63,988 bases of DNA, filler included, from Candidatus Huberarchaeum crystalense (GCA_002790315.1; 5 parts of 5 records of this genome joined end to end with filler, not necessarily neighbours in it); one strand, 5' to 3'. Shown: positions 366 to 63,315, counted from the first letter of the whole stretch. Program-made: numbers and translations. The notes: generated by a model from the letters alone, not told the origin.

Positions 366-456
366 ATTATTATTTAAATTATAATTAAAAATTAAAAAAT
401 TTGATTTAGGATATAAAGAATAGTGCGCGCTTTGGAAAAACTTATCAATTATAATA

Positions 457-528
457 AATAAGGGTTTGGTTAGCAGCACTCACAAAATCATGCTTTTAAT
501 AGGATTTTGAAGATAAAAAGGGCTTAAT
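457..528 (+). repeat. Dispersed ~70-bp intergenic repeat, copy 1
   Basis: Near-identical to 13777-13846, with identical core CATGCTTTTAATAGGATTTTGAAGATAAAAA. Confidence 0.85.
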
Positions 529-759
529 GATGCGGAAAATGTGGAAAACAAAGAGATTTAAGAAAAATTAAGAAGATAAAAATTTTTATCTTTGAACTGT
601 AAGTCAATTAGCATATGGTTTTGCTTAAAAAAAGTTTTGACATTCTCTATCAAACAAAGTATTTGCGCGCTCCTTTTTTTTACTTTATTTTTTATTTATA
701 AAAATATATAACTTGTTTTTTTTTGTTTTTTCATTTTAAACCACATTACTAAATATATT

Positions 760-2901
760 ATGAAAAATACCTCCATTCTTTTTTTTTTGTCGCTTGCTCT
801 TGTTGTTTTGGTAGCATCTTTTGCAATTGTAAATGCCAATGAGCTTGAAATTACACTTGACGAAAAAATTAGTGTGCAAGCAGAAGGTGATGGAATGTAT
901 GTTGCATATTATAATGTGACAGGGGGTCAAGTTTCAATTATAATTAACAATTCTAATTCTGATTATATGTCTGGCGTATCTGACACCCAGCTTGCTGATA
1001 TTTGGGTACCTATCAATGATTCAAAAAGCACGCTTTTGTTTTCTACTTGCCGTGTAAATAATGCGAGCACAGCAACAACAGACGGAATTATTTCTAATAC
1101 GAGCAATTATCCGTGTGCAGCGCAAATATGTAAAATAGTTAGTGGCGGTTTATCTGATTGTTTTTGTCTTGGAGATGGAGCAGCGACAACTGTAAATAAA
1201 ATAGAAGTGCTTGATTATAATGAGCATTTAAATGGAACTTCTAATTATGATTATGTTATTCATATCAATCAACTTAATAGTAGCAAGCAAGCCACAATTC
1301 TTTGCAATCTCAACACAACAGCAATGCAAAACAATAATAATGTTGTTTTTTCTTTTGCAGAGACATACACTCCTGCTAAAATTATCAACCGCGGATGCAC
1401 AGATGTTAGTGTTGTTTTAAATGTTACAAACAATTATTCTTCATCTTGCAATATTTCAGCAACAATTCAAAAGAAATTAGCAACGCGCGGAACAGGAACT
1501 TCTTGGAGTAATTTAACATTTAATTCAGCAACTAGTGCGACTATAAACAACACTAATAATGGGGCTTCTGCTCAGTGGAATAATTTAATTTTTACACCAA
1601 GCCAAACCCAAACATTTAATTTTACAATAAGCGCCTGTCCAAATATGACTGCTAATACATCAAAACTTGAAATGGGGCGCGTGCATATTTCTTTTAGTTT
1701 AGCAAATAATTCTTGCGCAAACGAAACAAAAACAGGCCTAAAAATAGGCCATGTTTCAGCAGTTGGTTCTGGTAGAATTGAGCCGCAAAAAGGATATAAT
1801 GGAACAGATTGGAATGAAACATCAACTTTTTACAATACTGCAACTGATTTGAATTATACTGTTTACAGTATGCGGGTTTGGGCTACAAATGGAACAGTTC
1901 CTTCTGCAAGCCCTAATGATGTATCAATTTCTGGTAGTGAATGGGCAAATTGCTTGGCAACATCTCCTTCTTTTGTTACTAATGGTTCAAGTGTTGGCTG
2001 CAATGGTGTACAAAGCTTTAAATTTAATGGAACACCTGTTGTGTGGGCGCGACCACTATTTGAATTGTCTCAAGGTGGAAATCGTGGTTGGCAAACCTAT
2101 ATTCAATTTGGAAACAGCGAAAATGCAAGTTATGCTTTGGGTTCTGATTATATGTTTATTGAAAAAATATGGGTTGTAAATGATTATCTTATACGCACAG
2201 CAAAACGAGTTATCCCTATTTCTCAACCAGGTTGCTATAATATTTCAATAAATGTAACAAATATGGGGCCAAGCTGTTCGCCGTATGTTTATATATATGA
2301 TATTGTTCCGCGCAAATTTAATGAAAGTATTTCTAACTTAGTTGTATTTAAAGACGACAGTGCAGGGAATGGAGTTTTTAGTAATACTTGCGATAATATA
2401 GCAAAACCAGGCAACACAGTAACAAATGTATCGCAAGGATATTTGCTTTCATTTGCAGATTCATCTGCAAGCGAAACTTGGAGTTTAGTGAGTTGCACAA
2501 ATACTTTCAATAAATCTCAATACACAGGAAAGCAAACAATGAGCGGTAAGTATAATGGAACGGGCTATTATTGGAAATTATTCCCTCTTGCTGGCTCTGT
2601 AAGTGGTGGAGAGTGTGTAGATGGAAAGTATCAAAACCTTGAAAATATGAGTATTGAGCAAAGTGTAATGATAAGTTATACAACATGCGCAGATGAAAAT
2701 GCTACTTATTATGCAAGCGACTTGTTTATTATTGGTGTAGACCCTGCAAATGCTGAAGGCAACGCAGCACCCCCACTTTTAGCAGGAATGGGAATAATAA
2801 GTTCAAGTAGTTTATCTGAAATTCTTTTGATTTTAGCATTGGCTGCTATTTTTGGCATAATTATCTTTGTTTATAGAAGGAATCAAAAGAAAAATGAATA
2901 A
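760..2901 (+). CDS. Secreted, C-terminally anchored cell-surface glycoprotein (713 aa)
   Basis: N-terminal signal peptide, many N-x-S/T sequons, paired Cys, C-terminal TM helix followed by a basic tail. Confidence 0.8.
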   Translation: MKNTSILFFLSLALVVLVASFAIVNANELEITLDEKISVQAEGDGMYVAYYNVTGGQVSIIINNSNSDYMSGVSDTQLADIWVPINDSKSTLLFSTCRVNNASTATTDGIISNTSNYPCAAQICKIVSGGLSDCFCLGDGAATTVNKIEVLDYNEHLNGTSNYDYVIHINQLNSSKQATILCNLNTTAMQNNNNVVFSFAETYTPAKIINRGCTDVSVVLNVTNNYSSSCNISATIQKKLATRGTGTSWSNLTFNSATSATINNTNNGASAQWNNLIFTPSQTQTFNFTISACPNMTANTSKLEMGRVHISFSLANNSCANETKTGLKIGHVSAVGSGRIEPQKGYNGTDWNETSTFYNTATDLNYTVYSMRVWATNGTVPSASPNDVSISGSEWANCLATSPSFVTNGSSVGCNGVQSFKFNGTPVVWARPLFELSQGGNRGWQTYIQFGNSENASYALGSDYMFIEKIWVVNDYLIRTAKRVIPISQPGCYNISINVTNMGPSCSPYVYIYDIVPRKFNESISNLVVFKDDSAGNGVFSNTCDNIAKPGNTVTNVSQGYLLSFADSSASETWSLVSCTNTFNKSQYTGKQTMSGKYNGTGYYWKLFPLAGSVSGGECVDGKYQNLENMSIEQSVMISYTTCADENATYYASDLFIIGVDPANAEGNAAPPLLAGMGIISSSSLSEILLILALAAIFGIIIFVYRRNQKKNE

Positions 2902-3697
2902 ATCAATTTTATATTTATTTATTGCAACCTTTTTAACAGGAATATTACTAACCACAATCTCACCTATATATGGGCTTGATACTGATGATTCATCAGATAT
3001 TTATTTTGAACAACAAAATTATCTTATTAATTTGAATAAGAATAATGATAGTACTATCTCTCTTTTTACTACATTAAAGAACAATGGAAAAGATGCTCGC
3101 ATTTTTGGATATTTTACTTATTATTCAAACTTGCCTTTAAAAGATGTTGTATTAATTATAAATGGAGAACAAGCAGATGCGAAGAAATTGCGCGTAGAAA
3201 ATTCAATACTTACTTATGAGGGTTTATGGGAGCCATTGCCATCAGGACAAACATTAAATATATTTTTAACTCATTCTGTAGATTTTAATCCCAAAGGCAT
3301 TTTGTTTAAAGAAATTGAAATTATTCCCGGAAAATTTTATTTTAAGGATTTTTCTAACATATCTATAAAATTTGCCACGATAGCAATACAAACTCCAAAC
3401 AAAATAACATATAGCAATTATCCTAAATTTGAGATTAACTCAGCAGATGAGTATTCTGTTATTTGGCAAGATGATGGCTCTAATCGCCAATACATAGTTG
3501 AATATTCAGCAATTCCTTTTTTTAAAAATCATATTGTGCAGGGTTATTTTATTTTTTGGGTGTTTTTGTTTTTAGTTGCAGTAGGTGTGTTTTATATGTA
3601 TGAAAAAAAAGTGAGGCAAAAAGATTTTGTTGGTGTTGATCCTTTTATAGAAAAAAGTGCAGCCAAAAAGAAGAAAAAAAATAAACCAAGTAAGTAG
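2894..3697 (+). CDS. Secreted/membrane-anchored hypothetical protein
   Basis: Signal peptide MNKSILYLF..., C-terminal TM and Lys-rich tail; overlaps the upstream stop. Confidence 0.75.
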   Translation: MNKSILYLFIATFLTGILLTTISPIYGLDTDDSSDIYFEQQNYLINLNKNNDSTISLFTTLKNNGKDARIFGYFTYYSNLPLKDVVLIINGEQADAKKLRVENSILTYEGLWEPLPSGQTLNIFLTHSVDFNPKGILFKEIEIIPGKFYFKDFSNISIKFATIAIQTPNKITYSNYPKFEINSADEYSVIWQDDGSNRQYIVEYSAIPFFKNHIVQGYFIFWVFLFLVAVGVFYMYEKKVRQKDFVGVDPFIEKSAAKKKKKNKPSK

Positions 3698-3812
3698 AAA
3701 GAGAAAGCAAAGCAAAAAGTAAATATATTGTGTGTGTTAAACATATTAAATAAATTTTGGCTGAAAAAAACTTTAATTTTTTAAACTTTAACAAATATAA
3801 TAATTTTAGTTT

Positions 3813-3894: not shown

Positions 3895-3938
3895 ACTCTA
3901 TGTTTTTCTAATTTGGAATATATTATTTAGTAAAATAA

Positions 3939-5801
3939 CTATTTTTTTGCTGTTTTTTTCTCATTTGTAGAATGTGGCGCGCCATCTTTAACCACAATCA
4001 TATAAGCAACTAAAAGAACAAAATAAGATATTAAAAAGTATAAAACTACACATAACATATTGCAAGTAGTAGGCAAAAGAGGAAGAATGGGTAAGCAAGC
4101 GATGATTGCGATTGCTAGCAAGATTCTCCAAGATTTTTTTTGTTTTACTGATAAAAGCACACAACCTAAAATTAAAAGTAAAATAACAAAAGGAAGAAAT
4201 TCAGATTTTATGATGCAAAATTGCGCGCAAAACGTTTTTTCTTGATATATATAATTAATCATTGTGCTGTATGCTGTCATTGATGTATAAATAGTATATT
4301 TTCCACTTTCGCTAAGTTCAAGATAATATATTCCATTTTCATTTGTTGTAATATTTTGTTTTTTTCCAGAAAGGAACATATAAGTTAAATTAAAAAAGGG
4401 CAAAGGTTCTCCATATTGGTCTTTGACAAAAATAATTAAAATTTTATCATCTTGCCGCAATGTAATATTTGGGATTATTGTTTGTTTTTGCAAGTACACA
4501 CTAAAATTTGCTTGGTTATAACAAGTTCTGTTTATACTTGGGGCAGTAATTGAGAAATTATAAATGCCGAGTTCATTAGCTAAAAATTGCAATGTTTTGT
4601 TTTGGTAATAATAATCTATAATTTTATTTCCTGATGGAAAGATTATTTCAACACGCGCATCGTATATTGGTTGGTTGTAAACATTAAAAATATTCAATGT
4701 TGAGTTTTTGAGATAGTTGATTTTTAGTTCATAATAGATAGTCTCATTTTTTAAACAAGATTTGTATTTTTGTCGGGAAACAGAATAATGCCTTTGCTTT
4801 AGCTTAACTTGAATTGTTGGCTCTTTTATTTTTCCAGTATAATTTACAAAAAAATTTTGATCAAAAATAATGCTAAATTTTGGCAAAGACCAAAACACAG
4901 GAACATAATTTACAGAGTAATTTACAATAGGAGAATTCCAACTTTGACCTGGATTTAAAATTGTGTTTGGTGTGAAAATAAAATATTGGTTGGCATTGCA
5001 AGGTTGAGAATTACAAATAGATGTTTCATTTCCTTCCCACAAACGAATTTCTGTTAAATTTATTTGGGTTTCTGAAGGATTTGAGAAAATTGCAGATGCT
5101 TTCCAAATGTCGCCCTCGCGCGATTTTTCAACAATATTTTCAGCAGTTGTTAATGCAGAACCAAAGTAATTTTCTGTGCTATTATGTGAAGAAAGTATTT
5201 CTATTTCAGCATCTGCAAGTTGATGTGATGGCAACTTATAGGAATTTTCAAAATAAGCATAAAATGTTGTTGATGCGCTTTTATTTAAAGTTTGTTTCCA
5301 AATTACTTGGTTTTCTGAAATATTTCCATTACTTTCTTTTATTTTTCCAGGCAATGTTTTTTTAAGTGTTAGGTTTATTGGTTTGTTTAATTTGTTTTGT
5401 ATTGTGATTGCTAAATTTATGCCTGTTTTTTCATTTTCAGTTACTTGTGAGGGAACTATGCTTTCAGAGATATGCAAAATGCTTTGCGATTTGTTTCCAA
5501 AAAACTGTTTTTTTTCGCCAGATTGCAATTCATTAATAAAAATAGGGCATATTATTGTGTTGTTTTGACTATCTTTCCAATTTACAGAAGCATCGCAAGA
5601 CAGATTTATGTTCCAAATGCGGCTATTAGTAGGGTTATATATTTCAAGAGTGATTTGTTTTTCTACAATATATCGGTTATTTTGCTCAACAATATTCCCT
5701 GATTCTACAATGTTTATTTGTGGATTTAGAGCGTGCGCCGATGTAAAAATTATTAAACTCAACAAACTGAAACTCAAAAATAGTGCAATATTGTTTTTCA
5801 T
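3939..5801 (-). CDS. Secreted surface protein with C-terminal TM helices (620 aa), likely paralog of 760-2901
   Basis: Signal peptide, ~3 C-terminal TMs, and motifs shared with the 713-aa protein (EIRLWEG/SMRVWAT; VPVFWSLPKF/TPVVWARPLF). Confidence 0.75.
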   Translation of the reverse strand: MKNNIALFLSFSLLSLIIFTSAHALNPQINIVESGNIVEQNNRYIVEKQITLEIYNPTNSRIWNINLSCDASVNWKDSQNNTIICPIFINELQSGEKKQFFGNKSQSILHISESIVPSQVTENEKTGINLAITIQNKLNKPINLTLKKTLPGKIKESNGNISENQVIWKQTLNKSASTTFYAYFENSYKLPSHQLADAEIEILSSHNSTENYFGSALTTAENIVEKSREGDIWKASAIFSNPSETQINLTEIRLWEGNETSICNSQPCNANQYFIFTPNTILNPGQSWNSPIVNYSVNYVPVFWSLPKFSIIFDQNFFVNYTGKIKEPTIQVKLKQRHYSVSRQKYKSCLKNETIYYELKINYLKNSTLNIFNVYNQPIYDARVEIIFPSGNKIIDYYYQNKTLQFLANELGIYNFSITAPSINRTCYNQANFSVYLQKQTIIPNITLRQDDKILIIFVKDQYGEPLPFFNLTYMFLSGKKQNITTNENGIYYLELSESGKYTIYTSMTAYSTMINYIYQEKTFCAQFCIIKSEFLPFVILLLILGCVLLSVKQKKSWRILLAIAIIACLPILPLLPTTCNMLCVVLYFLISYFVLLVAYMIVVKDGAPHSTNEKKTAKK

Positions 5802-5879: not shown

Positions 5880-7424
5880 ATGCTTAAAAAACCATTGCAA
5901 TTGCGCGCATATCAACAAAACATTTTGACAAATATTTTAAACAAAAATTCGCTTGTTATTTTACCAACAGGAACAGGAAAAACCTTTCTTGCTTTGGCTT
6001 TGGCAGTTGAAAAGTTAAAAACCCACCCAAATCAAAAAATTTTAATAATGGCTCCGTCAAAACCATTAGTGCACCAGCATTTTTTGACATTTGTTGAGTT
6101 TTTAGATGCTGAAATTGTTGAAATTACAGGTCAGGTTCCTGCTTTTAATAGAGAGAAAATATATGCACAAGCAGACATTATTATAGCCACACCGCAGACA
6201 ATTGAGAATGATCTTATTACTGGTCGCTTGGACTCTAATAATTTGTCGTTTGTTGTGTTTGACGAAGCGCATCATGCGGTTTCTAATTACAGTTATGTAT
6301 TTATTTCAAAGTTTTTTCAAACAAAGGATTCAAAACCGCAACATCTTGGACTTACTGCTTCTCCTGGTAGCAACCAAGAAAAAATTGATGAAATTATAAA
6401 CAATTTGTTTATCAAACACATAGAAATTAGAAGCGAGGAAGATAAAGATATGAGTTTGTATATAATGAAAAAACAAATAGAGTGGAGAAAAATAAATTTG
6501 CCGGAACAATTTTTGAGCATAAAAAAAGCACTAACTGTTGCTTCAAAAACTTTACAAAAGCAATTATATAACTTAGGTTTTTCTGTTGAAAATAACAGCA
6601 AACGAGACTTAATCTTGCTGCAAAACAAACTTCACAACCTTGTAGCAAATAGTGGTGAAAAAACAGTTTTTCGCGCACTATCTTTGCTTGCTGGACTTAT
6701 AAAAGTAGAATATGCAATTGAACTTTTAGAAACGCAAGGGATTAGCGCACTTTTAGGGTTTTTTGAGAAATTAAAAAAGCAAAAATCAAAAGCAGCAAAA
6801 TCGCTTTTATCTGATGAAAATTTTAAATTTGCTTGTGAAAAAGCACAATATTTATCAACAGAAAAGTTGGAACACCCAAAAATACCAGAGTTAGTGAAAA
6901 TTATTGAAGAAAACAAGAACAAGCAAATCATTATATTTTCGCAATACCGTTCTACTGTTGATGTGATTATTAACTCGATTTGCGCGGTTTGTGTTCCTGT
7001 TAAGCTTATCGGGCAAAAAGAAGGGATGACACAAAAACAACAACAAGCAGCAGTTGAGCGATTTAGGCAAGGAAAATCAAATGTGCTTGTTTGCACTTCT
7101 GTTGGCGAAGAAGGCTTAGATATTTTGGGGGTAGATATTGCTATTTTTTTTGAAGCAGTTCCGTCTGAAATCCGCGCAATTCAACGCGCAGGCAGAGTGG
7201 CGCGCCACAAAGTTGGCAAAATAATTATTTTCTTGGCAAAAGGAACGCGCGACGAGGTTTATTTTTGGAGCGCGCAATGGAAAAAAAAGCAAATGAAAAA
7301 AACAATAGATATTTTAAAAAATAACAACTTTGCTGATAAATCTTGGCAACCAGATAAAAATTCTTTTGCTGATAAATCTTCATCTTCAAGCAAAAGTCAT
7401 AAGAATCTTTTGGATTTTGAATAA
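5880..7424 (+). CDS. hef: Hef/FANCM-like SF2 DEAH helicase (helicase half only)
   Basis: LRAYQ, PTGTGKT, FDEAHHA, LTASPG, TSVGEEGLDI, QRAGRVAR motifs; no nuclease domain. Confidence 0.9.
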   Translation: MLKKPLQLRAYQQNILTNILNKNSLVILPTGTGKTFLALALAVEKLKTHPNQKILIMAPSKPLVHQHFLTFVEFLDAEIVEITGQVPAFNREKIYAQADIIIATPQTIENDLITGRLDSNNLSFVVFDEAHHAVSNYSYVFISKFFQTKDSKPQHLGLTASPGSNQEKIDEIINNLFIKHIEIRSEEDKDMSLYIMKKQIEWRKINLPEQFLSIKKALTVASKTLQKQLYNLGFSVENNSKRDLILLQNKLHNLVANSGEKTVFRALSLLAGLIKVEYAIELLETQGISALLGFFEKLKKQKSKAAKSLLSDENFKFACEKAQYLSTEKLEHPKIPELVKIIEENKNKQIIIFSQYRSTVDVIINSICAVCVPVKLIGQKEGMTQKQQQAAVERFRQGKSNVLVCTSVGEEGLDILGVDIAIFFEAVPSEIRAIQRAGRVARHKVGKIIIFLAKGTRDEVYFWSAQWKKKQMKKTIDILKNNNFADKSWQPDKNSFADKSSSSSKSHKNLLDFE

Positions 7425-7439: not shown

Positions 7440-7610
7440 TGTTTAGTTTGAATAAGCAATAATTAATAGTGAAATGTTTAGATTTGTTAATAAGCAACAA
7501 TTAATAATAAAACATTTAGATTTGTTAATAAGCAACAATTAATAATAAAATATTTAGATTTGTTAATATAAAATACTTAGTGGTAAAATGTTTAGTTTGT
7601 TAATAAGCAT
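7440..7610. repeat. Imperfect tandem repeat, ~38-bp unit
   Basis: TTTAGATTTGTTAATAAGCAACAATTAATAATAAAA at 7477 and 7515, partial at 7553, with degenerate flanking copies. Confidence 0.85.
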
Positions 7611-7650
7611 TATGATAGGCGAAATAGAAATAAACAACATAATAAGTAAA

Positions 7651-8460
7651 ATGAAAAATAATGATTATGTTAAGACTTTCAAAAATATGATTAAACACAA
7701 CATCACAAACCAAGCCCAAAAACAAGAAGTAGCAGTGGCTTTTTCTGGCGGCGTTGATAGTTCTGTTTTATCAAAATTATTAAAGGATTTGGGTTATACA
7801 CAAACTTGCTATGTTGTTGGTGTAAGTGGTTGTAGTGATTTTAAGATAGCAGAATTGTCTTGCTGTGAGATAGGTATTAAATTAAAAAAAATAATTGTCT
7901 CTGAAAAAGAAATTAGTGATGCAGTTGAAATTTTGGGTAAAATTTTGAGCGCGCTCTATGAAAAGCATAAAGACGAATTTTTGCGTCCTACTCTACTTTC
8001 AATTTCTTATAATCTGCCTTTGTTTTTTGTTGCAAAATATGCTGTTGAAAATATTGTTTTTGTTGGTCAAGGACCTGACGAACTTCTTGGAGGTTATAGT
8101 CGCCACAGCAAAATGTTATTTGACGCAGCAGTTAAAGAAATAGCAAAAGATACAAACAATTTACACTTTGTTTTGCTTCAAAACAAAGCAATATTTGATT
8201 ATTTTGATAAGAAGTGCGCGCTTCCCTATATAAGCACAGAAATTGCAGATTTTTGCCTTGATTTGTTGTTTGAACTCAAAATAAATAACAAAACCAACAA
8301 ATACCTTTTAAGGTTGCTGGCAAAACATCTTAGATTGAGCAATGAAATTGCTTTTAGGAAAAAGAAAGCGAGCCAATATGGATCAGGAATGTGGAAAATT
8401 GTAAACAAACATCTTAAAAATAGTTCTGCTTTTGTATGTTTTTTGTTAGCTTGTGGATAA
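7651..8460 (+). CDS. Asparagine synthase C-terminal-like PP-loop ATPase (no glutaminase domain)
   Basis: AFSGGVDSS, GQGPDELLGGY, RKKKASQYGSG motifs; start uncertain (7588/7612/7651). Confidence 0.8.
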   Translation: MKNNDYVKTFKNMIKHNITNQAQKQEVAVAFSGGVDSSVLSKLLKDLGYTQTCYVVGVSGCSDFKIAELSCCEIGIKLKKIIVSEKEISDAVEILGKILSALYEKHKDEFLRPTLLSISYNLPLFFVAKYAVENIVFVGQGPDELLGGYSRHSKMLFDAAVKEIAKDTNNLHFVLLQNKAIFDYFDKKCALPYISTEIADFCLDLLFELKINNKTNKYLLRLLAKHLRLSNEIAFRKKKASQYGSGMWKIVNKHLKNSSAFVCFLLACG

Positions 8461-8475: not shown

Positions 8476-9120
8476 ATGTCTGTTCCTGAATTTATTCCAA
8501 AAATAATTATAGATTCGCGCGAATTTCATTCGCTTGTTACGCGCGAACTTGCTTTACTTGGCGCGAAAATTGAAATGAAGCCTTTAGATGTTGGTGATTA
8601 TGTTGTTTCTTGCGATGTTGTTGTAGAAAGAAAAGAAATAGGAGATTTTATTTTATCTATTTTAGACAACCGCCTGTTTGAGCAACTAGCGAATTTAAGG
8701 AAAGCAGAGTCACCAATTTTACTCATAGAGGGAACAAATTCTACACACAATCTTGGCCCAAATGCATTTTTTGGAGCATTAGCATCTGTGGCTGTTGATT
8801 TTAAAATTCCAATATTGTGGATGAAAAATAGTAATGAAAGCGCGCGCTTTTTGTTTCAGCTTGCCAAACGCGAGCAGTTTGATTTAAAAAAAGAAGTAGT
8901 AGTCAGGTGTCAAAAGAAAATATCAACAATTCAAGATACGCAAGAGTTTTTTATCGCTGGTTTGCCTAATATAAATACTGTGTTGGCGCGTCGACTTCTT
9001 AAAAAATTTAAAACACCTAAAAAAATTGTTGTTGCTTCCAATGAAAAACTTCAAAAAGTTGAAGGGATTGGCAAGAAAAAAGCAGAACAGATAAGAGAGG
9101 TTTTAGATAAATGCTATTAA
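8476..9120 (+). CDS. ERCC4/XPF nuclease with HhH2 domain (nuclease half of Hef)
   Basis: IIDSRE, GDY..VERK..DF nuclease motif, GLPNI and VEGIGKKKA helix-hairpin-helix. Confidence 0.9.
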   Translation: MSVPEFIPKIIIDSREFHSLVTRELALLGAKIEMKPLDVGDYVVSCDVVVERKEIGDFILSILDNRLFEQLANLRKAESPILLIEGTNSTHNLGPNAFFGALASVAVDFKIPILWMKNSNESARFLFQLAKREQFDLKKEVVVRCQKKISTIQDTQEFFIAGLPNINTVLARRLLKKFKTPKKIVVASNEKLQKVEGIGKKKAEQIREVLDKCY

Positions 9121-9281: not shown

Positions 9282-9875
9282 ATGACTAAAACAGCGTTAG
9301 ACTATGTCAAAACATATTTTACTTATGCTATAATTGTATTTATTTTAATGCTTTTGATTAAGCAGATTATCACAACATCTTTTCCAACAATATCATTTAT
9401 TCCTATTGATAATACTCCAACACCAACAGCAGAAATTCAGATGCAGGAATTAAAGAAGCAAATAGCAGCCCATAAGCAGTTAACTTTTGCGCGCGCAGTT
9501 GAAAATACTATTTTTGATTTTAAGGATTATTTATTTTCTCAAGTGATGTATAGCTTAAAAATTGAAAGCAATAAACAGCTTGTGTTTTTTTACGGAAGAA
9601 TTCCTGTGTGCGAAGGTGATAAAGTAGTTTATAGGGGAGCTAATTTAATATATGATTTTGATGAAAAAAAGCCAAAATACCTTGAAATTTTTAATTCTCG
9701 AGTTGAATTTGGTTGTAATATTCACTTTGCCATAGAACAAGCAGACATTATTGCTAGTGAAGTTAAATCCAAATGCCTTGCTTTTGATCCTGAGCCGATG
9801 TGGATGTTTGTATGTGGAAATAAAACCTTTTTAGTAGATGTTAAGACCTGCCAGTTAAAACCTTCTGTTGATTAG
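9282..9875 (+). CDS. Hypothetical protein with N-terminal TM anchor
   Basis: 197-aa ORF with one TM segment and several Cys. Confidence 0.7.
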   Translation: MTKTALDYVKTYFTYAIIVFILMLLIKQIITTSFPTISFIPIDNTPTPTAEIQMQELKKQIAAHKQLTFARAVENTIFDFKDYLFSQVMYSLKIESNKQLVFFYGRIPVCEGDKVVYRGANLIYDFDEKKPKYLEIFNSRVEFGCNIHFAIEQADIIASEVKSKCLAFDPEPMWMFVCGNKTFLVDVKTCQLKPSVD

Positions 9876-10604: not shown

Positions 10605-11029
10605 AAGCAAGGCAAATTTACAAAAGACGGCGCAAAGGCAAGACATATTATCAAAAGCGAATAAAACTTTTGCTTTCAAGATTGCCAAGATTAGTTGTTA
10701 GATTTACAAACAAACACATTATTTGCCAAATAGTTGAATATAAAGAAAAAGGAGATCTTGTAAAAGCAACTTGTTTTGATAATAAAAATCAAGAGGGCTG
10801 CCAAAAAGCAGGTGTAAAAATTGGAGAAAAGGCAAAAGAGCTTGGAATTAAAAAAATGATTTTGGATTTAGGGCTTGGGAAAAATAAAGCAAGAGTTGTA
10901 GCGTGCGCGCGCGGTGTTTTAAGCACAGATGTTGATTTGCCATTTTCATTTGATGAAAGTAAAAAAGAAGATAAAGATAAAACTAAAAAAAATGAAGAAA
11001 AACCAAAAGTAAAGAAAGAGCAGAATTAG
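10601..11029 (+). CDS. rpl18: 50S ribosomal protein uL18
   Basis: KRRRKGKTYYQKRIKLL, PRLVVRFTNKHIICQ, ILDLGL; follows eL19. Confidence 0.9.
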   Translation: MKARQIYKRRRKGKTYYQKRIKLLLSRLPRLVVRFTNKHIICQIVEYKEKGDLVKATCFDNKNQEGCQKAGVKIGEKAKELGIKKMILDLGLGKNKARVVACARGVLSTDVDLPFSFDESKKEDKDKTKKNEEKPKVKKEQN

Positions 11030-12782: not shown

Positions 12783-12897
12783 TGTTAACGACCATAGCAT
12801 AGAGGAAACACCTGGTCCCATTCTGAACCCAGAAGTTAAGCTCTGCGCGCGCGTATTTGTACTGCCTACGGGTGGGAAGATTTGCGTGTTGTTAACA
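12783..12897 (+). rRNA. rrf: 5S rRNA (stand-alone)
   Basis: GACCATAGC, ACACCTGGTCCCATTCTGAACCCAGAAGTTAAGC and GTACTG..GGGAA motifs; terminal helix TGTTAAC/GTTAACA. Confidence 0.9.
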
Positions 12898-22389: not shown

Positions 22390-22489
22390 NNNNNNNNNNN
22401 NNNNNNNNNNNNNNNNNNNNNNNNNNNNNNNNNTTAATTAATTAANNNNNNNNNNNNNNNNNNNNNNNNNNNNNNNNNNNNNNNNNNNN
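22390..22489. other. Artificial scaffold linker (N44-TTAATTAATTAA-N44)
   Basis: Six-frame stop linker flanked by equal N runs. Confidence 0.97.
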
Positions 22490-47714: not shown

Positions 47715-47814
47715 NNNNNNNNNNNNNNNNNNNNNNNNNNNNNNNNNNNNNNNNNNNNTTAATTAATTAANNNNNNNNNNNNNNNNNNNNNNNNNNNNNN
47801 NNNNNNNNNNNNNN
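47715..47814. other. Artificial scaffold linker
   Basis: N44-TTAATTAATTAA-N44. Confidence 0.97.
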
Positions 47815-50800: not shown

Positions 50801-53800
50801 AAAATGATTCTGATAATGATGGTGTTGGTAATGCATGTGATAATTGTAGATATGTCCTTAATTCAAACCAAAAAGACACAGATAATGATTGTTCTCGTCC
50901 ACCATATGTATACTGTCCTTTGTGTGGAGATATGTGTGATTCAGAAAATATATGTTCTTGTTATACTTGTACAGAATGTACTAATATGCTTTGGAATGAA
51001 AGTTGTAAAATTGTTCTTTTAAAAGTAAATTTGCAACCCGCAGCTTCTTGTATTACAGGTCCAACAGGAATATACTCTGCAGATTTATCTTTGATTTTTG
51101 ATTCAAAGAGATTTGACTGCCAAAACCACTCAATAATAGGTAGTGGAAAAGGAAATGGAATTGAATTAAAGGGTAATGGGGGTGTTGGTGGAAATAATTT
51201 AATTGAAAATTGCATAATTGAAAACTTTGAAAAAGGAATTAGTGTGACAAATTCAAACACCAATGTTTTTTATAATAATCAAATACAAAATAATAAGATA
51301 GTTGGAATTGAAATCGACACTTCTTCAAAAAACAACACCTTACATTATAATGTTATTTGCAATAATACGAGAGATATTTTAGATAGAGGTATTAATAATA
51401 AAGGATTAGAAAATTATTGTTCTGTTTTTGGTAATTGGAATGATGTTGGCGGAGCTTATAAATTAGGGTGCAGCCACAAATGTATTGAAAAGTATTGTGT
51501 AGATGCTGATAATGATGGATATTTTGCTGTTTCTTGTGGGGGAGATGACTGCGATGATAACAATTCATCAATTAATCCAAGAGTATCAGAAAAATGCAAT
51601 ACATCTATAGATGAGAATTGTAATGGTCTAATAGATGAAGAGGGTTGTATGAATATTTCTGATTGTATAGATGAAGACAGAGATGGATTTGTTAGTTGTA
51701 CTTATTGTGCTAATTGTTCTACTTGTAATATGAGTAAATGCGATTGCAATGACAACAATCCACATATTAGCCCGAGTCAAAAAGAAATTTGTAATGATGG
51801 TATTGATAATAATTGTAATGGCCTTATTGATGAAAACACATTAGATAACCCCTGTGTCAATTCTCAAACTATTTGTATTGATTCAAGTGGTGATAGATAT
51901 TATAGATATACAAAAGGAGATCCTTTGGTTTGTCAAGAAATGGGGGAGGATTGTGATGATACAAGGGCAGATATTGGTCCAAACCAGGGAGAAATTTGTG
52001 ATGATGGTATTGATAATAATTGCGATACTTTGATTGATTTAGATGACCCAGAATGCCAGTGTAAAGATGAAGACAAAGACGGCTTTTTTGCATGTTCGCC
52101 CCTTTGCTTGCTTATAACAACAAAATGTGATTGCAATGATAAAAATGCTAATATTAATCCAAATGCAACTGAGATCTGCAATGGAATTGATGATAATTGT
52201 GATGGCTCTATTGATACTGGTTGTCCTTGTTCGCCTGTAGGTATTACTCAAATATGTAGTAAAAATGTTGGTATTTGTAAAGAAGGAAATCAAATATGCC
52301 AGAGCGATTATACGTGGGGTGAGTGTGATGGTGTGTTGCCTATGGAAGAAATTCCTGATAATGGTATTGATGAAGATTGTGATGGACAAGATTTAATAAC
52401 TAAAAAAGAAAAGAGCGAGGGTGGGGGTTTAAGCAGACCAGTATCTTTTCATAAGATAGGCAAAATTCAATATATATTTACTCCTGTTGATATATCTAAA
52501 ATTTGCTTAAGAGAAACAATATGTATTACTTTTATTGATGTAGATGAAGTTTCTGTTTCAGATAATGTTAGATTGTTAGGTGTTAGTTCAAACAACAAAT
52601 TTTGTTTTAAAGTTGAAAATATAGGGGTTCAATCTATTCAAATGAAAAAGCTCGGTTATATGCCTGTCTATGAATCATTAAGTGTCATAGATTGTAAAAA
52701 GTGTGGAGATGGTGTTTGCTCTTCAGAAACAGGAGAAAACTCAATAACATGTTGTGAAGATTGTGGTTCAAAATGCGGAGACGAAGTTTGTAATTGTAAT
52801 GAAAACAATCAGACTTGTGTAAAAGATTGTAATCCTTGCTCAGAATATGGGTGTGGAGATGGTGTTTGCGGGGCAGAGTGTGGAGAAACATCTGAAACTT
52901 GTATAGAAGATTGCGGAAAACCCGTCCTTCTTGTTAAAGATTGCACTTGTGACTTTACATCTCCAAATTGGCACACACCCATTTTAGCAATATTATCATT
53001 AATTTTAATATTTTTAACTTACTCTTTTACAGCACTTAAAAACCGTTGCCCTTTATCTGAGAAATCTGACGAAAATACATTAAAAAATTATCTTTCTAAA
53101 GCCCTTATAGAACAAGGAACAGAATACAAATTGCCCCAAAACATCTTATCAACAAAATATTCACTAACTTCTTTACTTCCAGTACTGCTTTTAAAAGGTT
53201 GGACAAATAATCAAATCACTAATGCTATTAAAAGTATAGAGCAATATAAAAATGACTATATTCAACTGATTGCTGGCATTATTGTTTTTGCAATTTCGGT
53301 TGGTTTAACTTATCTTGCATACAATGGAAAATTAGTTATTTACTCATCCACAATGCTTTGCGATGCTTGTTTGCTTTTTTACCTTGTTCCATCACTTTTG
53401 TCAATTGTTTTGGTTTATTTGGCTTCAAACCAAATTTATCGCATTCCAAATAAAAACAATTCAGAACAAGATGTTTTAAGCAATTATTTAGCAAAAGCAC
53501 TAAAATCCCAAGAACAAGACACACTCAGTTCTACATATTCAAATAAAGAATTATTGTCAAAAATAAAAACCATGCAGTTTGACAAACAGTTATTAAGCGA
53601 CATATTTTCAAGAATTAAAAATATGTTTTCTCATATTTTGAGCGTGTTAAAAAATACAGCTTTTCCCCGATTTTCAGAAGAACAACTGCTTCCACTTGCT
53701 ATATATAAAGGATGGACAAAAGCAGAATTTAATAAGGCAAAACTATCGGTTATTAAGCCACAATATGATTTTATACAACTAATCATAACAATAATTACAG

Positions 53801-54141
53801 CAATGGTTTTAGTATGTGTTTTAATTTTTATAGGTTGTTGTAAATCTCTTGTTTTGCCGTGGATGATTGTTTTGCTGTCTGGCGCGCATATTTTCTACAA
53901 GATTTTACAAAACAAAAAACTTGAAGAAATGCCAATTAGCAGTGATTTGCAAGTTAATGTTTCTAAAATTTTAGAAATTTCTGTGAAGATATTAGAGAGC
54001 AAACAAATATTTGTTCAACAAAAAGAGTTATTACCAGAAAAAATTGAATATCAGGGACAACAATTTTGGAGAGTTCTGACAAAAGATAAAAACCACGAAG
54101 TCATACTTGATTTAAAAGGAAAAGTGTTGAGAGTTATTTAA
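47815..54141 (+). CDS. Giant Cys-rich surface protein (>2100 aa, 5'-truncated): CARDB-like, DUF11-like, TSP3 repeats, beta-helix, MopE-like repeats, C-terminal TMs
   Basis: IKETDESDN; ISDTLPAGTTYV; DTDKDGVPDDSDNC..NPDQ.DSDNDGVGNACD; repeated DC.D....I.P...EIC.DGIDNNC; CGDG.C....E....C..DC repeats. Confidence 0.85.
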   Translation, partial: RIHPVVAYITKPFVYIQGCYSEMFAYSDGTPGYRLSCTLSNPDFYWGIGNSYRCKSCSSVSTINNTANSQWHVIITGKNVDGSTSTRLDKTEDIGVNIPCGTKITKKIEKEIPISELATSEGVDTVNIITLSDGKKDTQTQQFYSVKNFLFPIGDKFEMCTSMSEAYIRFSAANIDYKSQSATIDCMSGANCAQTNIFDIPLWGSLVGTVHAKGLTGGTNGATYTLRVKGEIPLGTSKRTDKKEITITKNDYVCGQNIMVTRFWPNTSCELGKPIKFTAELRSTSSNKISEKFYNQFKIGSLYSEHLYLTENQFQNLTNYNLTYIDYNWIPSSAGPYSACIIADSNNNIIKETDESDNRACSTFYCTGFLGFVDKSVDKITAEPHQLIKYTIPYGNIKGGVNLTNVKISDTLPAGTTYVNSSPEGIMRNNVITWNLGNLEAGDGGTLSLILNISTCYTKGTIIPNSAKLTAGDNMGNSYSTDSPSVSTRIVCSKDTDNDGLCDVCDLVFCGNGGCDAGETCATCPFDCACVSPDVCCGSGSSAKCFTLACISNSDCRYLDAACRKYSCVFGGTCNAKCNISSEITHCNNSTKDGCCPPGCTTANDADCLATCGNGICDKLSENCNNCPRDCGCNATYEYCSKKGVCEPLCGDGRCDRGSGENEISCCIDCSCSANLCLGSTYITHNCPFKNGLGGCATNHDDCSDCSCSCGGYNRTEKPSDGSCNDKKDNNCDGECDYDTSGGCIKGDKGCSIEITNIAVSASTVCPGEYVYVNCTSSVPNVNSVEVSVDGDSTKCSWTAWNGNKANFRCYVSETTKTQTINCAVNTNKSYKQGSDKNQTITVGGQVCCSDYKTSAVCGNDNKCEWCHTCKGTKYSGGGDRCISKGNCIFSCNKRMCSATCDAAQGGCGQVYDYTVWDSCKNNTVKEGTRYCNITTCDSNSCSCKYDSAGVCDVASETLSCDSDSVCVGGQCKKDTDKDGVPDDSDNCIYVSNPDQNDSDNDGVGNACDNCRYVLNSNQKDTDNDCSRPPYVYCPLCGDMCDSENICSCYTCTECTNMLWNESCKIVLLKVNLQPAASCITGPTGIYSADLSLIFDSKRFDCQNHSIIGSGKGNGIELKGNGGVGGNNLIENCIIENFEKGISVTNSNTNVFYNNQIQNNKIVGIEIDTSSKNNTLHYNVICNNTRDILDRGINNKGLENYCSVFGNWNDVGGAYKLGCSHKCIEKYCVDADNDGYFAVSCGGDDCDDNNSSINPRVSEKCNTSIDENCNGLIDEEGCMNISDCIDEDRDGFVSCTYCANCSTCNMSKCDCNDNNPHISPSQKEICNDGIDNNCNGLIDENTLDNPCVNSQTICIDSSGDRYYRYTKGDPLVCQEMGEDCDDTRADIGPNQGEICDDGIDNNCDTLIDLDDPECQCKDEDKDGFFACSPLCLLITTKCDCNDKNANINPNATEICNGIDDNCDGSIDTGCPCSPVGITQICSKNVGICKEGNQICQSDYTWGECDGVLPMEEIPDNGIDEDCDGQDLITKKEKSEGGGLSRPVSFHKIGKIQYIFTPVDISKICLRETICITFIDVDEVSVSDNVRLLGVSSNNKFCFKVENIGVQSIQMKKLGYMPVYESLSVIDCKKCGDGVCSSETGENSITCCEDCGSKCGDEVCNCNENNQTCVKDCNPCSEYGCGDGVCGAECGETSETCIEDCGKPVLLVKDCTCDFTSPNWHTPILAILSLILIFLTYSFTALKNRCPLSEKSDENTLKNYLSKALIEQGTEYKLPQNILSTKYSLTSLLPVLLLKGWTNNQITNAIKSIEQYKNDYIQLIAGIIVFAISVGLTYLAYNGKLVIYSSTMLCDACLLFYLVPSLLSIVLVYLASNQIYRIPNKNNSEQDVLSNYLAKALKSQEQDTLSSTYSNKELLSKIKTMQFDKQLLSDIFSRIKNMFSHILSVLKNTAFPRFSEEQLLPLAIYKGWTKAEFNKAKLSVIKPQYDFIQLIITIITAMVLVCVLIFIGCCKSLVLPWMIVLLSGAHIFYKILQNKKLEEMPISSDLQVNVSKILEISVKILESKQIFVQQKELLPEKIEYQGQQFWRVLTKDKNHEVILDLKGKVLRVI

Positions 54142-54877: not shown

Positions 54878-54977
54878 NNNNNNNNNNNNNNNNNNNNNNN
54901 NNNNNNNNNNNNNNNNNNNNNTTAATTAATTAANNNNNNNNNNNNNNNNNNNNNNNNNNNNNNNNNNNNNNNNNNNN
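54878..54977. other. Artificial scaffold linker
   Basis: N44-TTAATTAATTAA-N44. Confidence 0.97.
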
Positions 54978-59102: not shown

Positions 59103-59143
59103 AATGTTTTTGCTTGTTTTTAGATAATTTAATACAATATAAT

Positions 59144-59656
59144 ATGGATAAAAAAGATAAAAATAAAGAAAATGAACGAATAATTGATATTGATTTGCCT
59201 GTGCAGCGAATAAGCAAACAGCCAAAAACCGAAAAAATGAATTTTGATGTAAATTTTGGCGATGATTTTGATGAAAGACAGGATTTTTTCAGTAGAGGGT
59301 TTAGCAGCCAGTTTTCAGACATTTTTAAACTTTTAAAAAATTTACCTTTAAAAATGGAAAAGCAATTAGGATTTGAGCAAATGAAAATCGAAGATAAACC
59401 AGATGAAACAAGAATTACAGTAGCACTTCCTGGATTTGAGAAAAAAGACCTTCACATAACAGTGCAAAACAAAACAATATTTCTAAGCGCGCAGAAAAAA
59501 GGCGAAAACGAATTAAAGCGTGTTTCTAAGCAATTATGCTTAGGTGACGAGATTGATGTTAAAAATGTGCGCGCAGAGTATAAAAATGGTTTGCTTGTTT
59601 TGGTTATTCGCAAAAAAACCAGCAAGTCGACTGATTTTGATATAAACATAGAATAA
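59144..59656 (+). CDS. Small heat shock protein (Hsp20)
   Basis: VALPGFEKKDL, VRAEYKNGLLVL alpha-crystallin motif. Confidence 0.9.
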   Translation: MDKKDKNKENERIIDIDLPVQRISKQPKTEKMNFDVNFGDDFDERQDFFSRGFSSQFSDIFKLLKNLPLKMEKQLGFEQMKIEDKPDETRITVALPGFEKKDLHITVQNKTIFLSAQKKGENELKRVSKQLCLGDEIDVKNVRAEYKNGLLVLVIRKKTSKSTDFDINIE

Positions 59657-59857
59657 ATTTACTTATTCTTATTAAGAGTATTTAAACCGCGCGCTATAAA
59701 TAATATATAGATATTTAAGATAAAACCTTGATGTTCAGACCCTGGTTTTTCTTAATATAAACTATAAGTATTTTGCGCGAGCAAAATATATCTCACTATA
59801 AAATATAAAACATAATGGTTTTGCTAAGAAACTATTATTCTTAAAGGAGGAATCAAA

Positions 59858-60013
59858 ATGGTAACAGCAAGATGTATGAAATGCAGAAAAGAAGTTAATG
59901 TAAAAAATCCAACTATCGTAACAATGCCTAATAGCAGAAAGGCGCTGAAAGGCACTTGTCCTTATTGTGGAACAACTGTTTTTAAATTTGTTAGCAAAGA
60001 TTTTAAACTATAA
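59858..60013 (+). CDS. DUF5679-like small zinc-ribbon protein (51 aa; not in ORF track)
   Basis: MVTARCMKCRKEVNVKNPTIVTMPNSRKALKGTCPYCGTTVFKFVSKDFKL*; strong SD AAAGGAGG. Confidence 0.85.
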   Translation: MVTARCMKCRKEVNVKNPTIVTMPNSRKALKGTCPYCGTTVFKFVSKDFKL

Positions 60014-60018
60014 ATTTA

Positions 60019-60055
60019 CTAAATAATTCCCTAGTTCCCTAGGGAAATTATTTAG
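60019..60055 (+). terminator. Hairpin after the DUF5679-like gene
   Basis: CTAAATAATTCCCTAG-TTCC-CTAGGGAAATTATTTAG, followed by a T-rich tract. Confidence 0.6.
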
Positions 60056-60318
60056 ATATTTCTATATTTTTTATAGTTTTTCTTTATAAAAAATATATTT
60101 TTAAATTTTATATTATTTCATATTATAAAAATCAGAGATTCTACTTTGTTGCGCGCCCCACATAAATTTAACATAATGTTGCGTGCGTGCGTTTTAACAA
60201 ACCCAAAATTTTAAAAGAATTTGGCAATGTATTTACTGATTTGTTTAAACATTTCAATTAACTAAAATATTTTGTGCTTAAATATTGCAATGTATTAAAA
60301 TGTTTTCTTAAATATATT

Positions 60319-60513
60319 ATGTTATTTCCAATAAGATGTTTTTCGTGCGGCCGCGTCATAGCACACAAATGGGAAGAATATGAAAAGCGCGTTGAAAAGG
60401 GCGAAGATTCAATTAAGGTTCTTGATGAAATGGGATTTATTGATTATTGTTGCAAGCGGATGTTTTTGACGCATGGGCAGGATAAAATTGATTTGTTGGT
60501 GAAACGCGAGTAA
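60319..60513 (+). CDS. rpo10: RNA polymerase subunit Rpo10 (N)
   Basis: MLFPIRCFSCGRVI...VLDEMG..YCCKRM. Confidence 0.95.
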   Translation: MLFPIRCFSCGRVIAHKWEEYEKRVEKGEDSIKVLDEMGFIDYCCKRMFLTHGQDKIDLLVKRE

Positions 60514-60748
60514 AATCTATTAAAATTATCTGTTTTTGTGCTTTTTTTATCTTTTTTTGAAAGCAAAAAGGGCATATGTGCGCGCACCTTATTATATTTT
60601 AAAGGGGGTTTTAAATACCCTCGTATAAATATATTATAGGGAGTTTTTACTTTTCTATATTAAATCCCCTGTAAGACAGGAGATTTATAAAAGGTTTGCA
60701 ACGCAAACTTTCACACAAATAAAGGAAAACAAAATGAAAATAGGGGAA

Positions 60749-60848
60749 NNNNNNNNNNNNNNNNNNNNNNNNNNNNNNNNNNNNNNNNNNNNTTAATTAA
60801 TTAANNNNNNNNNNNNNNNNNNNNNNNNNNNNNNNNNNNNNNNNNNNN
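60749..60848. other. Artificial scaffold linker
   Basis: N44-TTAATTAATTAA-N44. Confidence 0.97.
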
Positions 60849-61358
60849 CCTAAATATTATGAGAATTTTGAAAATGCTTCTAAAAGAATTACTAAATCAT
60901 ACAAAGAAACACGAAGATACATATTAAAAAATGCAAATTTAAATTCAAAAGATACAGAAAGTATTGAAACACTTGAAACACAATACAATATAATAAAAAA
61001 GAAATATAATATCAATAATACTACTAATAATGCTGATCTTGAGATTGATATTAAGAAGTTGAATTATACACAAATACTACTCGACAAAGAAAAGGTTAAA
61101 TATGTCACTTATAATGATAAGGGAGACATAGGTAAAAGTTTTATTGAGGATATTAATATTCTTAGAGAGGATACTACTAAAGTAAATGTAAAAGAAAATA
61201 TAGATATATTTAATACAGAAGATATATTAATAACAAGATTATATGGATCATACCCTAACCAAAAATCTCCTACGCAAAAAAACACATTAACTATTTATAT
61301 TCCAAAATCTTGTATACACCTCCATAACGATTTAGTTGAAAATACTATATGTATGTAA
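60849..61358 (+). CDS. Hypothetical protein, 5'-truncated
   Basis: Frame open from the scaffold edge into ORF 61059. Confidence 0.55.
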   Translation, partial: PKYYENFENASKRITKSYKETRRYILKNANLNSKDTESIETLETQYNIIKKKYNINNTTNNADLEIDIKKLNYTQILLDKEKVKYVTYNDKGDIGKSFIEDINILREDTTKVNVKENIDIFNTEDILITRLYGSYPNQKSPTQKNTLTIYIPKSCIHLHNDLVENTICM

Positions 61359-61433
61359 AACTCACAAACATTGCCAAAAAGCATAATTATTAAAAATATT
61401 ACTTTTGTTTGCTTTATTGCTTTATAAAAATTT

Positions 61434-62342: not shown

Positions 62343-62413
62343 GCGCTTGTGGTCTAGTGGCAAGACAAGAGCTTCCCAAGCTTTTAACCTGAGTTCAAAT
62401 CTCAGCAGGCGCA
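62343..62413 (+). tRNA. tRNA-Gly(CCC)
   Basis: Acceptor GCGCTTG/CAGGCGC, anticodon loop TT-CCC-AA, AGTTCAAATC; begins immediately after the nfo stop. Confidence 0.92.
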
Positions 62414-62434
62414 TCAAATTTGTTATAAAAATAT

Positions 62435-62584
62435 ATGGCGAGCAACAAAATTCTTATGCCTGGCGAAACTGCTGGGTTAATGTCTTTTAGTGAAAATACT
62501 TTGTCAAAAATTCAAATTCCTCCGCTTATTATTATTGGAATATGTCTTCTTTTAATCGCAATTTTTTGGCTTTTTCGCTATTAG
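62435..62584 (+). CDS. secG: Sec61beta/SecG translocase subunit (not in ORF track)
   Basis: MASNKILMPGETAGLMSFSENTLSKIQIPPLIIIGICLLLIAIFWLFRY*: AGL..F..SKI.I.P plus a C-terminal TM. Confidence 0.75.
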   Translation: MASNKILMPGETAGLMSFSENTLSKIQIPPLIIIGICLLLIAIFWLFRY

Positions 62585-62892
62585 TTTTCTCAATTTTGTA
62601 ACAAATCTATTAATAATTGTTTTTTATGTATAGTTGGATTTGTTATCTGTTATCAGAAACGACATTTGTTATTAAAAAAATTGTTGTTCAAAAAGTAAAA
62701 TTAATTGAGTTCTTTTAAACAAACATAATAAAATTATGATATTACATGCACATCAAAATAAAGTTTGTACGAGCAAGAGGGTACTAATGGCATTGAAACA
62801 AAGTTTCAAAACATTATTTTCTAAGGAAAGAAAATAATGGCATTGAAAAATGTAATTTTTCAAAACATTATTTTTTTAGGAGATAAAAAATA

Positions 62893-63315
62893 ATGGCAAA
62901 AAAAGCAAGAAAAGGAGGGCATATTATGAAAGGCTTTCCTAGCCGTAGTTTGCCGAAAAATTCATTTGTTAAAGTGGTTGATAACTCAGGAGCTAAAGAA
63001 ATTAAAATTATTGCAGTTAAAGGTCATGTAACTACTAAAAAACGAATGCCTGCAGCCAGAGTTGGAGATATGGTTTGGGGTAGCATAACTGCCGGTGATG
63101 TCAAAATTAAAGGAACTGTGTTAAATGGTGTTGTTGTAAGAGCAAAAAAAGAATACCGCCGCGCAAACGGATGGCATGTTAAATTTGAAAGCAATGGAAT
63201 TATTTTAATTAATGCAGACGGAACACCAAAAGGCACAATTATTAAAGGACCTGTGGCGCGCGAAGCAATTGAATTTTTCCCTGAAATAGGCAAGATTGCA
63301 AAGAGTGTTGTGTAA
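62893..63315 (+). CDS. rpl14: 50S ribosomal protein uL14
   Basis: VVDNSGAK, AARVGD, RAKKEYRRANG..VKFESN, PKGT.IKGPVARE. Confidence 0.95.
   Translation: MAKKARKGGHIMKGFPSRSLPKNSFVKVVDNSGAKEIKIIAVKGHVTTKKRMPAARVGDMVWGSITAGDVKIKGTVLNGVVVRAKKEYRRANGWHVKFESNGIILINADGTPKGTIIKGPVAREAIEFFPEIGKIAKSVV

Follow-up and report, generated by a model that had tools for sequence, protein, structure and literature searches.

GCGCGC is a HIP-like, DNA-level word in a single lineage of DPANN archaea

The closest described counterparts of the element reported here are the highly iterated palindromes (HIPs) of cyanobacteria. HIP1, the octamer GCGATCGC, occurs inside and between genes and is over-represented (15- to 300-fold) beyond what codon usage predicts (PMC5861425); it is recognised by DmtA and DmtC, is found across the phylum, is conserved between orthologues and is periodic at 10-90 kb, and the two studies describe no evident role for it at the level of peptide or expression (PMC5861425, PMC13756078). 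Its proposed functions include a chromosome-level role maintained by selection (Xu, Lawrence and Durand 2018, PMC5861425) and a methylation-dependent role in DNA uptake or natural transformation (Rodriguez-Cruz et al. 2026, PMC13756078). Alternate HIPs are confined to single cyanobacterial lineages: GGCGCC in Calothrix PCC 7103/D253, GCsGC in Cyanothece PCC 7822 and rCCGGy in Oscillatoria PCC 10802 (Elhai 2015, PMC4390886). Here we analysed a 63,988-base stretch of archaeal DNA (hereafter the window) and found that GCGCGC is a HIP-like word, acting at the level of the DNA, of one DPANN lineage, in which it occupies about half of the synonymous coding opportunities.

The resemblance to the alternate HIPs is close, because GCGCGC too is a short G/C-rich palindrome in large excess in one lineage, at 1134 copies per Mb compared with 500-2500 per Mb for the cyanobacterial words, although it is another word, in another domain of life and in a DPANN archaeon with a genome of ~1 Mb; in addition, HIPs are tied to cognate methyltransferases in the same study (Elhai 2015, PMC4390886), whereas only 57 open reading frames (ORFs) of the window and nine of the same population were scanned here. 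With HIP1 the word shares the order of its excess, which in both goes beyond codon usage, a presence inside and between genes (PMC5861425) and the lack of an evident peptide or expression role in the accounts cited above; unlike that phylum-wide octamer, it is confined to a single lineage. A sequence-only reading of the same DNA had named HIP1 as a comparable system, and HIP1 and the alternate HIPs are indeed the closest described phenomenon. Literature searches outside supplements and subscription journals turned up no archaeon described as having an iterated palindrome or too many copies of GCGCGC, and as far as these searches show, highly iterated palindromes are in print only for cyanobacteria.

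The window holds 63,454 called bases and 534 N, has a G+C content of 30.9% over the called bases, and joins five contigs (3-25 kb) of a metagenome-assembled genome (MAG) through linkers, so that neighbourhood and spacing across the linker points carry no meaning. The word and the joints are placed as follows.

425-63261, no strand assigned: the 72 GCGCGC sites, in all five contigs.
22390-22489, 47715-47814, 54878-54977 and 60749-60848: linkers of the form N44-TTAATTAATTAA-N44.

GCGCGC occurs 72 times when overlapping copies are counted, at 65 separate places, and the related words CGCGCG, GCGCG and CGCGC occur 25, 119 and 113 times, respectively. The sequence-only reading had counted about 60 copies of GCGCGC, so the excess is real and stronger than was claimed. 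Per strand, a mononucleotide model predicts 0.86 copies and a first-order Markov model 1.9; orders 2, 3 and 4 predict 24, 43 and 76 but are unfair nulls because they have already been fed the sub-words of GCGCGC itself. None of 100 dinucleotide-preserving shuffles reached 72 copies (mean 2.02, standard deviation (s.d.) 1.34, largest 6). For the 57 ORFs of at least 90 codons, which hold 58 sites, permutation of synonymous codons within each gene yielded a mean of 4.76 (s.d. 2.16, maximum 13, 1000 runs), and a swap chain that leaves the proteins, their codon usage and the count of each dinucleotide unchanged yielded a mean of 10.75 (s.d. 2.82, maximum 19, 150 samples). Both coding nulls are conservative because they retain the GCG and CGC codons supplied by the word itself, and the enrichment survived even the null that preserves codons and dinucleotides together (58 versus 10.75).

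The excess is limited to alternating-GC words. Hexamers made only of G and C fall into 36 strand-symmetric classes. Four of these have an alternating 5-mer core and together count 160 copies against 7.6 expected, and the remaining 32 count 102 against 70.2, which rules out a general habit of G/C-only runs. As had been noted from the sequence, no other all-GC palindrome is equally frequent (GGCGCC 0, GCCGGC 0, GGGCCC 1, CCCGGG 1, CCGCGG 1 and CGGCCG 2). When the background was recomputed after masking alternating runs of at least five letters, isolated tetramers stood at background level (GCGC 45 versus 40.8 expected; CGCG 16 versus 14.2), and the longer runs compared with the same masked background as follows.

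Alternating 5-mers: 61 observed, 6.6 expected.
GCGCGC as a 6-letter run: 51 observed, 0.76 expected.
CGCGCG as a 6-letter run: 9 observed, 0.27 expected.
7-letter alternating runs: 7 observed, 0.12 expected.
(GC)4 runs, GCGCGCGC: 5 observed, 0.014 expected.

The excess thus begins abruptly at five letters and has its maximum at exact GCGCGC, and the counts for run lengths 4, 5, 6, 7, 8 and 9 (61, 61, 60, 7, 5 and 2) do not follow a geometric decay.

One-letter variants of GCGCGC all lie above the order-1 expectation (2- to 10-fold) except GCCCGC/GCGGGC at 0.5-fold, and by position they stand at 7.9-fold for the outer letters, 3.8-fold for the middle and 1.9-fold for the centre; the one-letter variants of HIP1 are likewise rarest at the central letters (PMC4390886). 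Variants that break the alternation reach 10.0-fold (GCGCGA) and 7.0-fold (GCGCGG). Transition variants (GCGCGT 6.1-fold, GCGCAC 4.0-fold and GCGTGC 2.2-fold) are similar to their transversion neighbours. A footprint of Vsr-type very-short-patch repair was also considered and rejected, the depletion of T:G-derived transition neighbours that it predicts being absent. Around the sites there is a mild preference for T...A (TGCGCGCA, 16 of 72 sites), and up to 80 bp away the flanks show no composition signal, no 10-bp period and no shared sequence.

These features bear on a structural explanation, according to which GCGCGC would readily form Z-DNA, act as a thermodynamic G/C clamp where the DNA is otherwise AT-rich, or position archaeal histones. 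GC and CG are the only steps in the word, the enrichment extends to both alternating phases, roughly one copy per kb is found everywhere, and GCGCGC is among the most stable hexamer duplexes by nearest-neighbour energies. However, longer runs would be better Z-formers or clamps, yet they drop about eightfold after six letters (from 60 to 7); variants in which purines and pyrimidines still alternate have no advantage over those in which they do not; the equally G/C-rich GGCGCC and GCCGGC are absent; the flanks lack any composition signal or 10-bp period within 80 bp; and relatives of the same G+C content do not have the word. We consider a structural element distinctly unlikely. The interpretation offered by the sequence-only reading holds in part: the DNA-level, HIP-like word stands, the methylase and the self-recognition or uptake variants are candidates, the Z-DNA variant is disfavoured by the drop after six letters and by the alternation not being favoured, and the chromatin variant draws no support from the featureless flanks.

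Most four-letter palindromes are scarce in the window, with ratios of observed to maximal-order expected counts of 0.47 for CATG, 0.48 for CTAG, 0.49 for AGCT, 0.58 for GATC and 0.63 for TCGA; this scarcity is the usual footprint of restriction pressure, and CGCG (1.70) is the only over-represented four-letter palindrome. Restriction-site avoidance resembles the present case in being a DNA-level pressure on short palindromes, exerted in the window on CATG, CTAG, AGCT and GATC, but its sign is opposite, GCGCGC being gained. Alternating-GC hexamers are generally suppressed across the prokaryotic genomes surveyed in one study (PMC4060949), and the GCGCGC excess runs counter to both this trend and the window's own avoidance of most four-letter palindromes.

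The placement of the sites indicates a pressure on DNA rather than on protein, as had been proposed from their occurrence in all codon phases and in intergenic DNA. Of the 58 coding sites, 18, 23 and 17 fall in the respective reading frames, 24 different peptides are encoded, and the density is the same in coding sequence (1.13 per kb) and in the rest of the window (1.12 per kb), where the 14 sites counted as non-coding include two (59487 and 59569) inside an ORF at 59114-59656 (+) that was dropped from the gene list. It could nevertheless be asked whether the cause lies in a preference for the Ala-Arg peptide or for a codon pair, or in an RNA motif. The dipeptides Ala-Arg (35) and Arg-Ala (39) are mildly over the 27.9 expected for each, and a palindrome appears in the transcripts of either strand. 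On the other side, the frames are used alike with 24 peptides, the density is unchanged outside confident genes, the synonymous-permutation nulls fall short 5- to 12-fold, and the Ala and Arg content of the proteins is not raised. Frame use and the two coding nulls together largely refute a cause at the level of protein, codon or RNA, and we regard it as very improbable. The sites and features to which the text refers are listed below.

7173-7275, no strand assigned: local cluster of CGCGC, CGCGC, GCGCGC, CGCGCG and GCGCGC inside the Hef helicase gene (5880-7424).
8840-8847, 9489-9496, 14843-14850, 27994-28001 and 33981-33988, no strand assigned: five exact (GC)4 runs, GCGCGCGC.
10905-10913, no strand assigned: 9-letter alternating run GCGCGCGCG in the L18 gene.
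12845-12853, plus strand: GCGCGCGCG in the 5S rRNA gene (12784-12897), where the family consensus already has gcgc.
17230-18573, minus strand: SRP54 gene, which holds 4 sites; its alignment includes 14 relatives from metagenomes.
47830-54141, plus strand: surface-type ORF of 2103 amino acids with 2 sites, an Ala/Arg-poor protein with 3 synonymous opportunities.
59689-59694, no strand assigned: intergenic GCGCGC directly upstream of TATAAATA.
665, 11043, 25356, 60151 and 60580, no strand assigned: other intergenic GCGCGC sites.

All of the sites that had been singled out by position (425, 665, 11043, 25356, 59689, 60151 and 60580) were recovered, as were the cluster of five related sites near 7172-7275 and the word in the 5S rRNA gene. 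The four SRP54 sites fall on a conserved Q-R-A, on a K-R-A where 12 of the 14 relatives have Y-K-V, on a lineage-specific Gly and in an unaligned tail. At 59689-59702, CGCGCGC adjoins TATAAATA, a possible BRE/TATA (transcription factor B recognition element and TATA box) promoter of the downstream zinc-ribbon gene; the case is single, and the other intergenic sites follow no pattern. An Rfam search of the site-rich region 59200-61100 at a permissive threshold returned two matches far below the gathering scores, which were taken as chance.

How often the word is used where the protein permits it is the most telling measure. GCGCGC spells 18 of the 35 Ala-Arg dipeptides, compared with the 1.8% predicted from codon use outside the word, and it is carried by 23 of 47 compatible tripeptides in frame 1 and 17 of 31 in frame 2, so that 58 of 113 synonymous opportunities are used, spread over the genes. 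When the opportunities were sorted by their distance from GCGCGC, 58 were zero letters away (1.5 expected), 20 one letter (15.4), 9 two letters (42.5), 23 three letters (50.3) and 3 four letters (3.3). GCGCGC therefore acts as an attractor, with sites drawn in from two and three letters away. To reach GCG-CGC from the AT-rich spelling GCA-AGA, transversions are needed along most routes, and a bias in T:G repair alone cannot drive these.

The main rival is a neutral, context-dependent bias of mutation or repair, in which a quirk of the polymerase or of mismatch handling extends or restores alternating G/C and the word is a by-product without a reader. Such a bias would fit the small genome and the fact that CGCGCG, the 5-mers, the longer runs and nearly all one-letter neighbours are also above expectation, and the window revealed no classical gene for mismatch repair. 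However, slippage or extension would not stop at six letters, where the runs peak sharply, and the four-letter runs are at background; the coding sites are in frame without insertions or deletions, so they arose by substitutions and are not filler; and the class two letters off has been drained (9 versus 42.5), mostly via transversions, and for this a bias would have to target the entire word. For HIP1, by analogy only, Xu et al. 2018 (PMC5861425) concluded in favour of selection and against biased repair. We rate a neutral bias as rather unlikely, though it deserves to be taken seriously.

The excess is shared by the population from which the window comes and by none of the relatives searched. 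The window is present almost letter for letter in 24 public groundwater or aquifer runs, with a near-identical strain in all of them and a word depth of roughly 100-140x in runs X1 and X4, and five metagenome contigs (L053-L057) match it in the overlap at 99.3-100% identity and carry 8-39 GCGCGC each, with the same excess; the first 6.2 kb of L054-L057, mostly sequence beyond the window's first contig, hold 6-9 sites. No excess was found in any of 52 genome loci around Elp3 homologues or in any of 20 non-identical metagenome loci around SRP54 homologues (43-48% identity), and the closest complete genome (G001) has 8 GCGCGC in 0.92 Mb. None of 39 genomes of the order to which the closest genome belongs matches the window (at most 399 per 0.8 Mb, where the reversed control word reaches 301), nor does any of 401 sampled genomes of the phylum, a tally that includes six genomes flagged as unpublished and in which those with at least 850 copies per Mb have GCGCGC:CGCGCG ratios between 0.95 and 1.5. 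Twenty genomes picked from the order and phylum tallies for a high count or ratio have 40-54% G+C and an observed-to-expected ratio of at most ~5, the highest counts thus reflecting a greater G+C content. On this distribution of sequences, the excess is specific to the lineage, and because all searched relatives are without it, it would be an acquired trait.

The same data dispose of an artefact or a mobile element, that is, of sites produced by assembly or linkers, by contamination of the bin or by copies of a small repeat. The window does consist of MAG contigs concatenated through linkers. However, the same sites recur in the five metagenome contigs, which were assembled separately, and also in contigs from four public runs, all five contigs of the window carry the word, the flanks of the sites are unrelated and no site touches a linker. 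An assembly artefact or mobile element is refuted by the recurrence of the same sites in independent assemblies, and we give this class of explanation practically no credence.

We propose that the word is written mainly through synonymous substitutions, at like density between genes, and that a sequence-specific reader of double-stranded DNA would recognise the palindrome. By analogy with HIP1, the reader would most likely be a cytosine methyltransferase (recognising GCGCGC, GCGC or CGCG) or a protein reading such a mark. Sites may be gained and kept if DNA that bears the mark has an advantage in repair, recombination or uptake, which would amount to selection or a recognition-dependent fixation bias and not to a raw mutation bias. 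On balance, and by a slight inclination, we think it probable that there is such a reader of double-stranded DNA, most likely linked to a methyltransferase, with the sites maintained by selection or recognition-dependent fixation bias.

Several observations weigh against this proposal. CGCGCG is itself ~34-fold above background, and any reader may thus recognise the five-letter core, not the palindrome. Transition neighbours are neither depleted nor in excess, and there is accordingly no sign of decay of 5-methylcytosine or of Vsr-type correction. Scans with Pfam, NCBIfam and PADLOC of the 57 window ORFs and nine ORFs of the same population revealed no C5 or N4 DNA methyltransferase, Vsr, NucS or further reader candidate, although the absence of a methyltransferase weighs little because the window is perhaps 6% of a genome whose size of ~1 Mb is itself taken by analogy with relatives. 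The spacing of the sites is Poisson-like (coefficient of variation 0.99), and used sites and unused opportunities do not differ significantly in their distance to the next site (494 versus 351 bp, p = 0.065), so nothing suggests a required spacing; random spacing, and a usage that tracks synonymous opportunity without a spacing rule, are as a neutral bias would have them. The population is nearly clonal (17 variant places in ~15 kb over the five metagenome contigs and 8 in 11.3 kb over the four runs), and no variant falls inside a GCGCGC, where ~0.1 was expected. No relative was found in the collections between ~99% DNA identity and 45% protein identity (the next SRP54 being at 45%), which leaves selection a hypothesis.

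Signs that proteins have been bent towards the word are weak, and this too counts against the proposal. In 31 orthologue pairs with the closest complete genome, a comparison that is saturated at 27-54% protein identity, compatible peptides number 81 in the window versus 67, and identity at word-encoded residues (0.411) is close to that at other Ala/Arg residues (0.429). Word-encoded Arg faces Lys in 9 of 30 cases, compared with 58 of 298 for Arg at other places (p = 0.23), and the aligned proteins contain no more Ala and Arg in total than their counterparts in the closest genome. At this level of saturation the relative has a compatible peptide at 7 of 43 sites, the same rate as in the opposite direction (10 of 67).

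Local density follows what the proteins allow, without a spacing rule, as usage tracks opportunity. The five contigs carry 1.65, 0.92, 0.28, 1.39 and 0.64 GCGCGC per kb, and the longest gap between sites (48389-53882) lies in the surface-type ORF of 2103 amino acids, where 2 of the 3 opportunities are used. This ORF (47830-54141, +) and two other large or undefined ones (760-2901, +, and 3939-5801, -) have DUF11/MopE-type or weak CARDB/DUF11-like signals and probably encode cell-surface proteins, judged by these signals; they are poor in GCGCGC because they are poor in Ala-Arg. The ORFs 760-2901 and 3939-5801 were also considered as DNA enzymes and rejected, as the only leads were weak ones to surface-type DUF11/CARDB proteins.

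The archaeal, AT-rich source proposed from the sequence is borne out by the gene set and by the nearest relatives, which are Woesearchaeota MAGs; judged from its genes, the organism is an AT-rich, deep-branching, Woesearchaeota-like DPANN archaeon. The window encodes archaeal-type PheRS (both subunits), SRP54, Elp3, archaeal GluRS, the CCA enzyme and RqcH; the ribosomal proteins L19e, L18, S5, L30, L21e, S6e, S3Ae, S27a, L10e and L14; and PCNA, the exosome subunits Rrp4/41/42, Spt5, a RadB-like ATPase, a Hef helicase and a separate ERCC4 nuclease, together with one 5S rRNA gene and four tRNA genes. Within the species collection the nearest genome is that of a Woesearchaeota MAG whose chromosome measures 919 kb; its Elp3 is 54% identical (the best match in genome contigs), and it matches 31 of 57 window proteins at 27-54% identity. 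Hef is divided between two ORFs, a helicase (5880-7424) and an ERCC4/HhH nuclease (8476-9120), with an asparagine-synthase-like gene between them (7588-8460); in G001 the helicase and nuclease parts adjoin each other (628934-630406 and 630537-631085). A stand-alone small PLD-family nuclease (25382-25978, +) has DrmC of DISARM as its best PADLOC match (E = 7.6e-14), and no DISARM partners were found near it.

Past the end of the first contig (window 22389) the population has two arrangements, one represented by L055:1-6184 and the other by L056:1-5067. One of them runs into genes for an IleRS-type enzyme and class I LysRS, the other into TrkA/TrkH, an eRF1/Pelota-like gene and prefoldin; GCGCGC is dense in both. 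A strain-level rearrangement probably broke the assembly at this point. A unit of 79 bp is present as two tandem, 100% identical copies at L055:5635-5791, between the LysRS/prefoldin genes and the ORF that enters the window's first contig.

A more far-reaching view is that GCGCGC serves a host-dependent DPANN archaeon as a tag of 'self', by which a dedicated reader, coupled to a methyltransferase or to uptake or recombination, would tell DNA of its own species from the AT-rich DNA of its host or neighbours; word-bearing DNA would then be preferentially taken up, recombined or spared. We offer this as an unlikely, speculative extension. The uptake signal sequences (USS) of Pasteurellaceae and the DNA uptake sequences (DUS) of Neisseriaceae are similar in that they occur about once per kb, lie in genes in every reading frame and accumulate by fixation bias, not by mutation; they differ in being 9-12 letters long and non-palindromic and in depending on known competence machinery. 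We know of no uptake system in this DPANN lineage, and the scans of the window ORFs identified no uptake or competence genes.

The function of HIPs has been debated for three decades, and the GCGCGC case places the same question in another domain of life. A genome of ~1 Mb leaves few candidate readers, and because the trait is sharply bounded, a search for the responsible gene by presence/absence comparison would be tractable with a complete genome. If GCGCGC is indeed a self tag, Archaea would gain their first described sequence for uptake or self-recognition, and as an independent origin of a HIP the word could reveal what HIPs are for.

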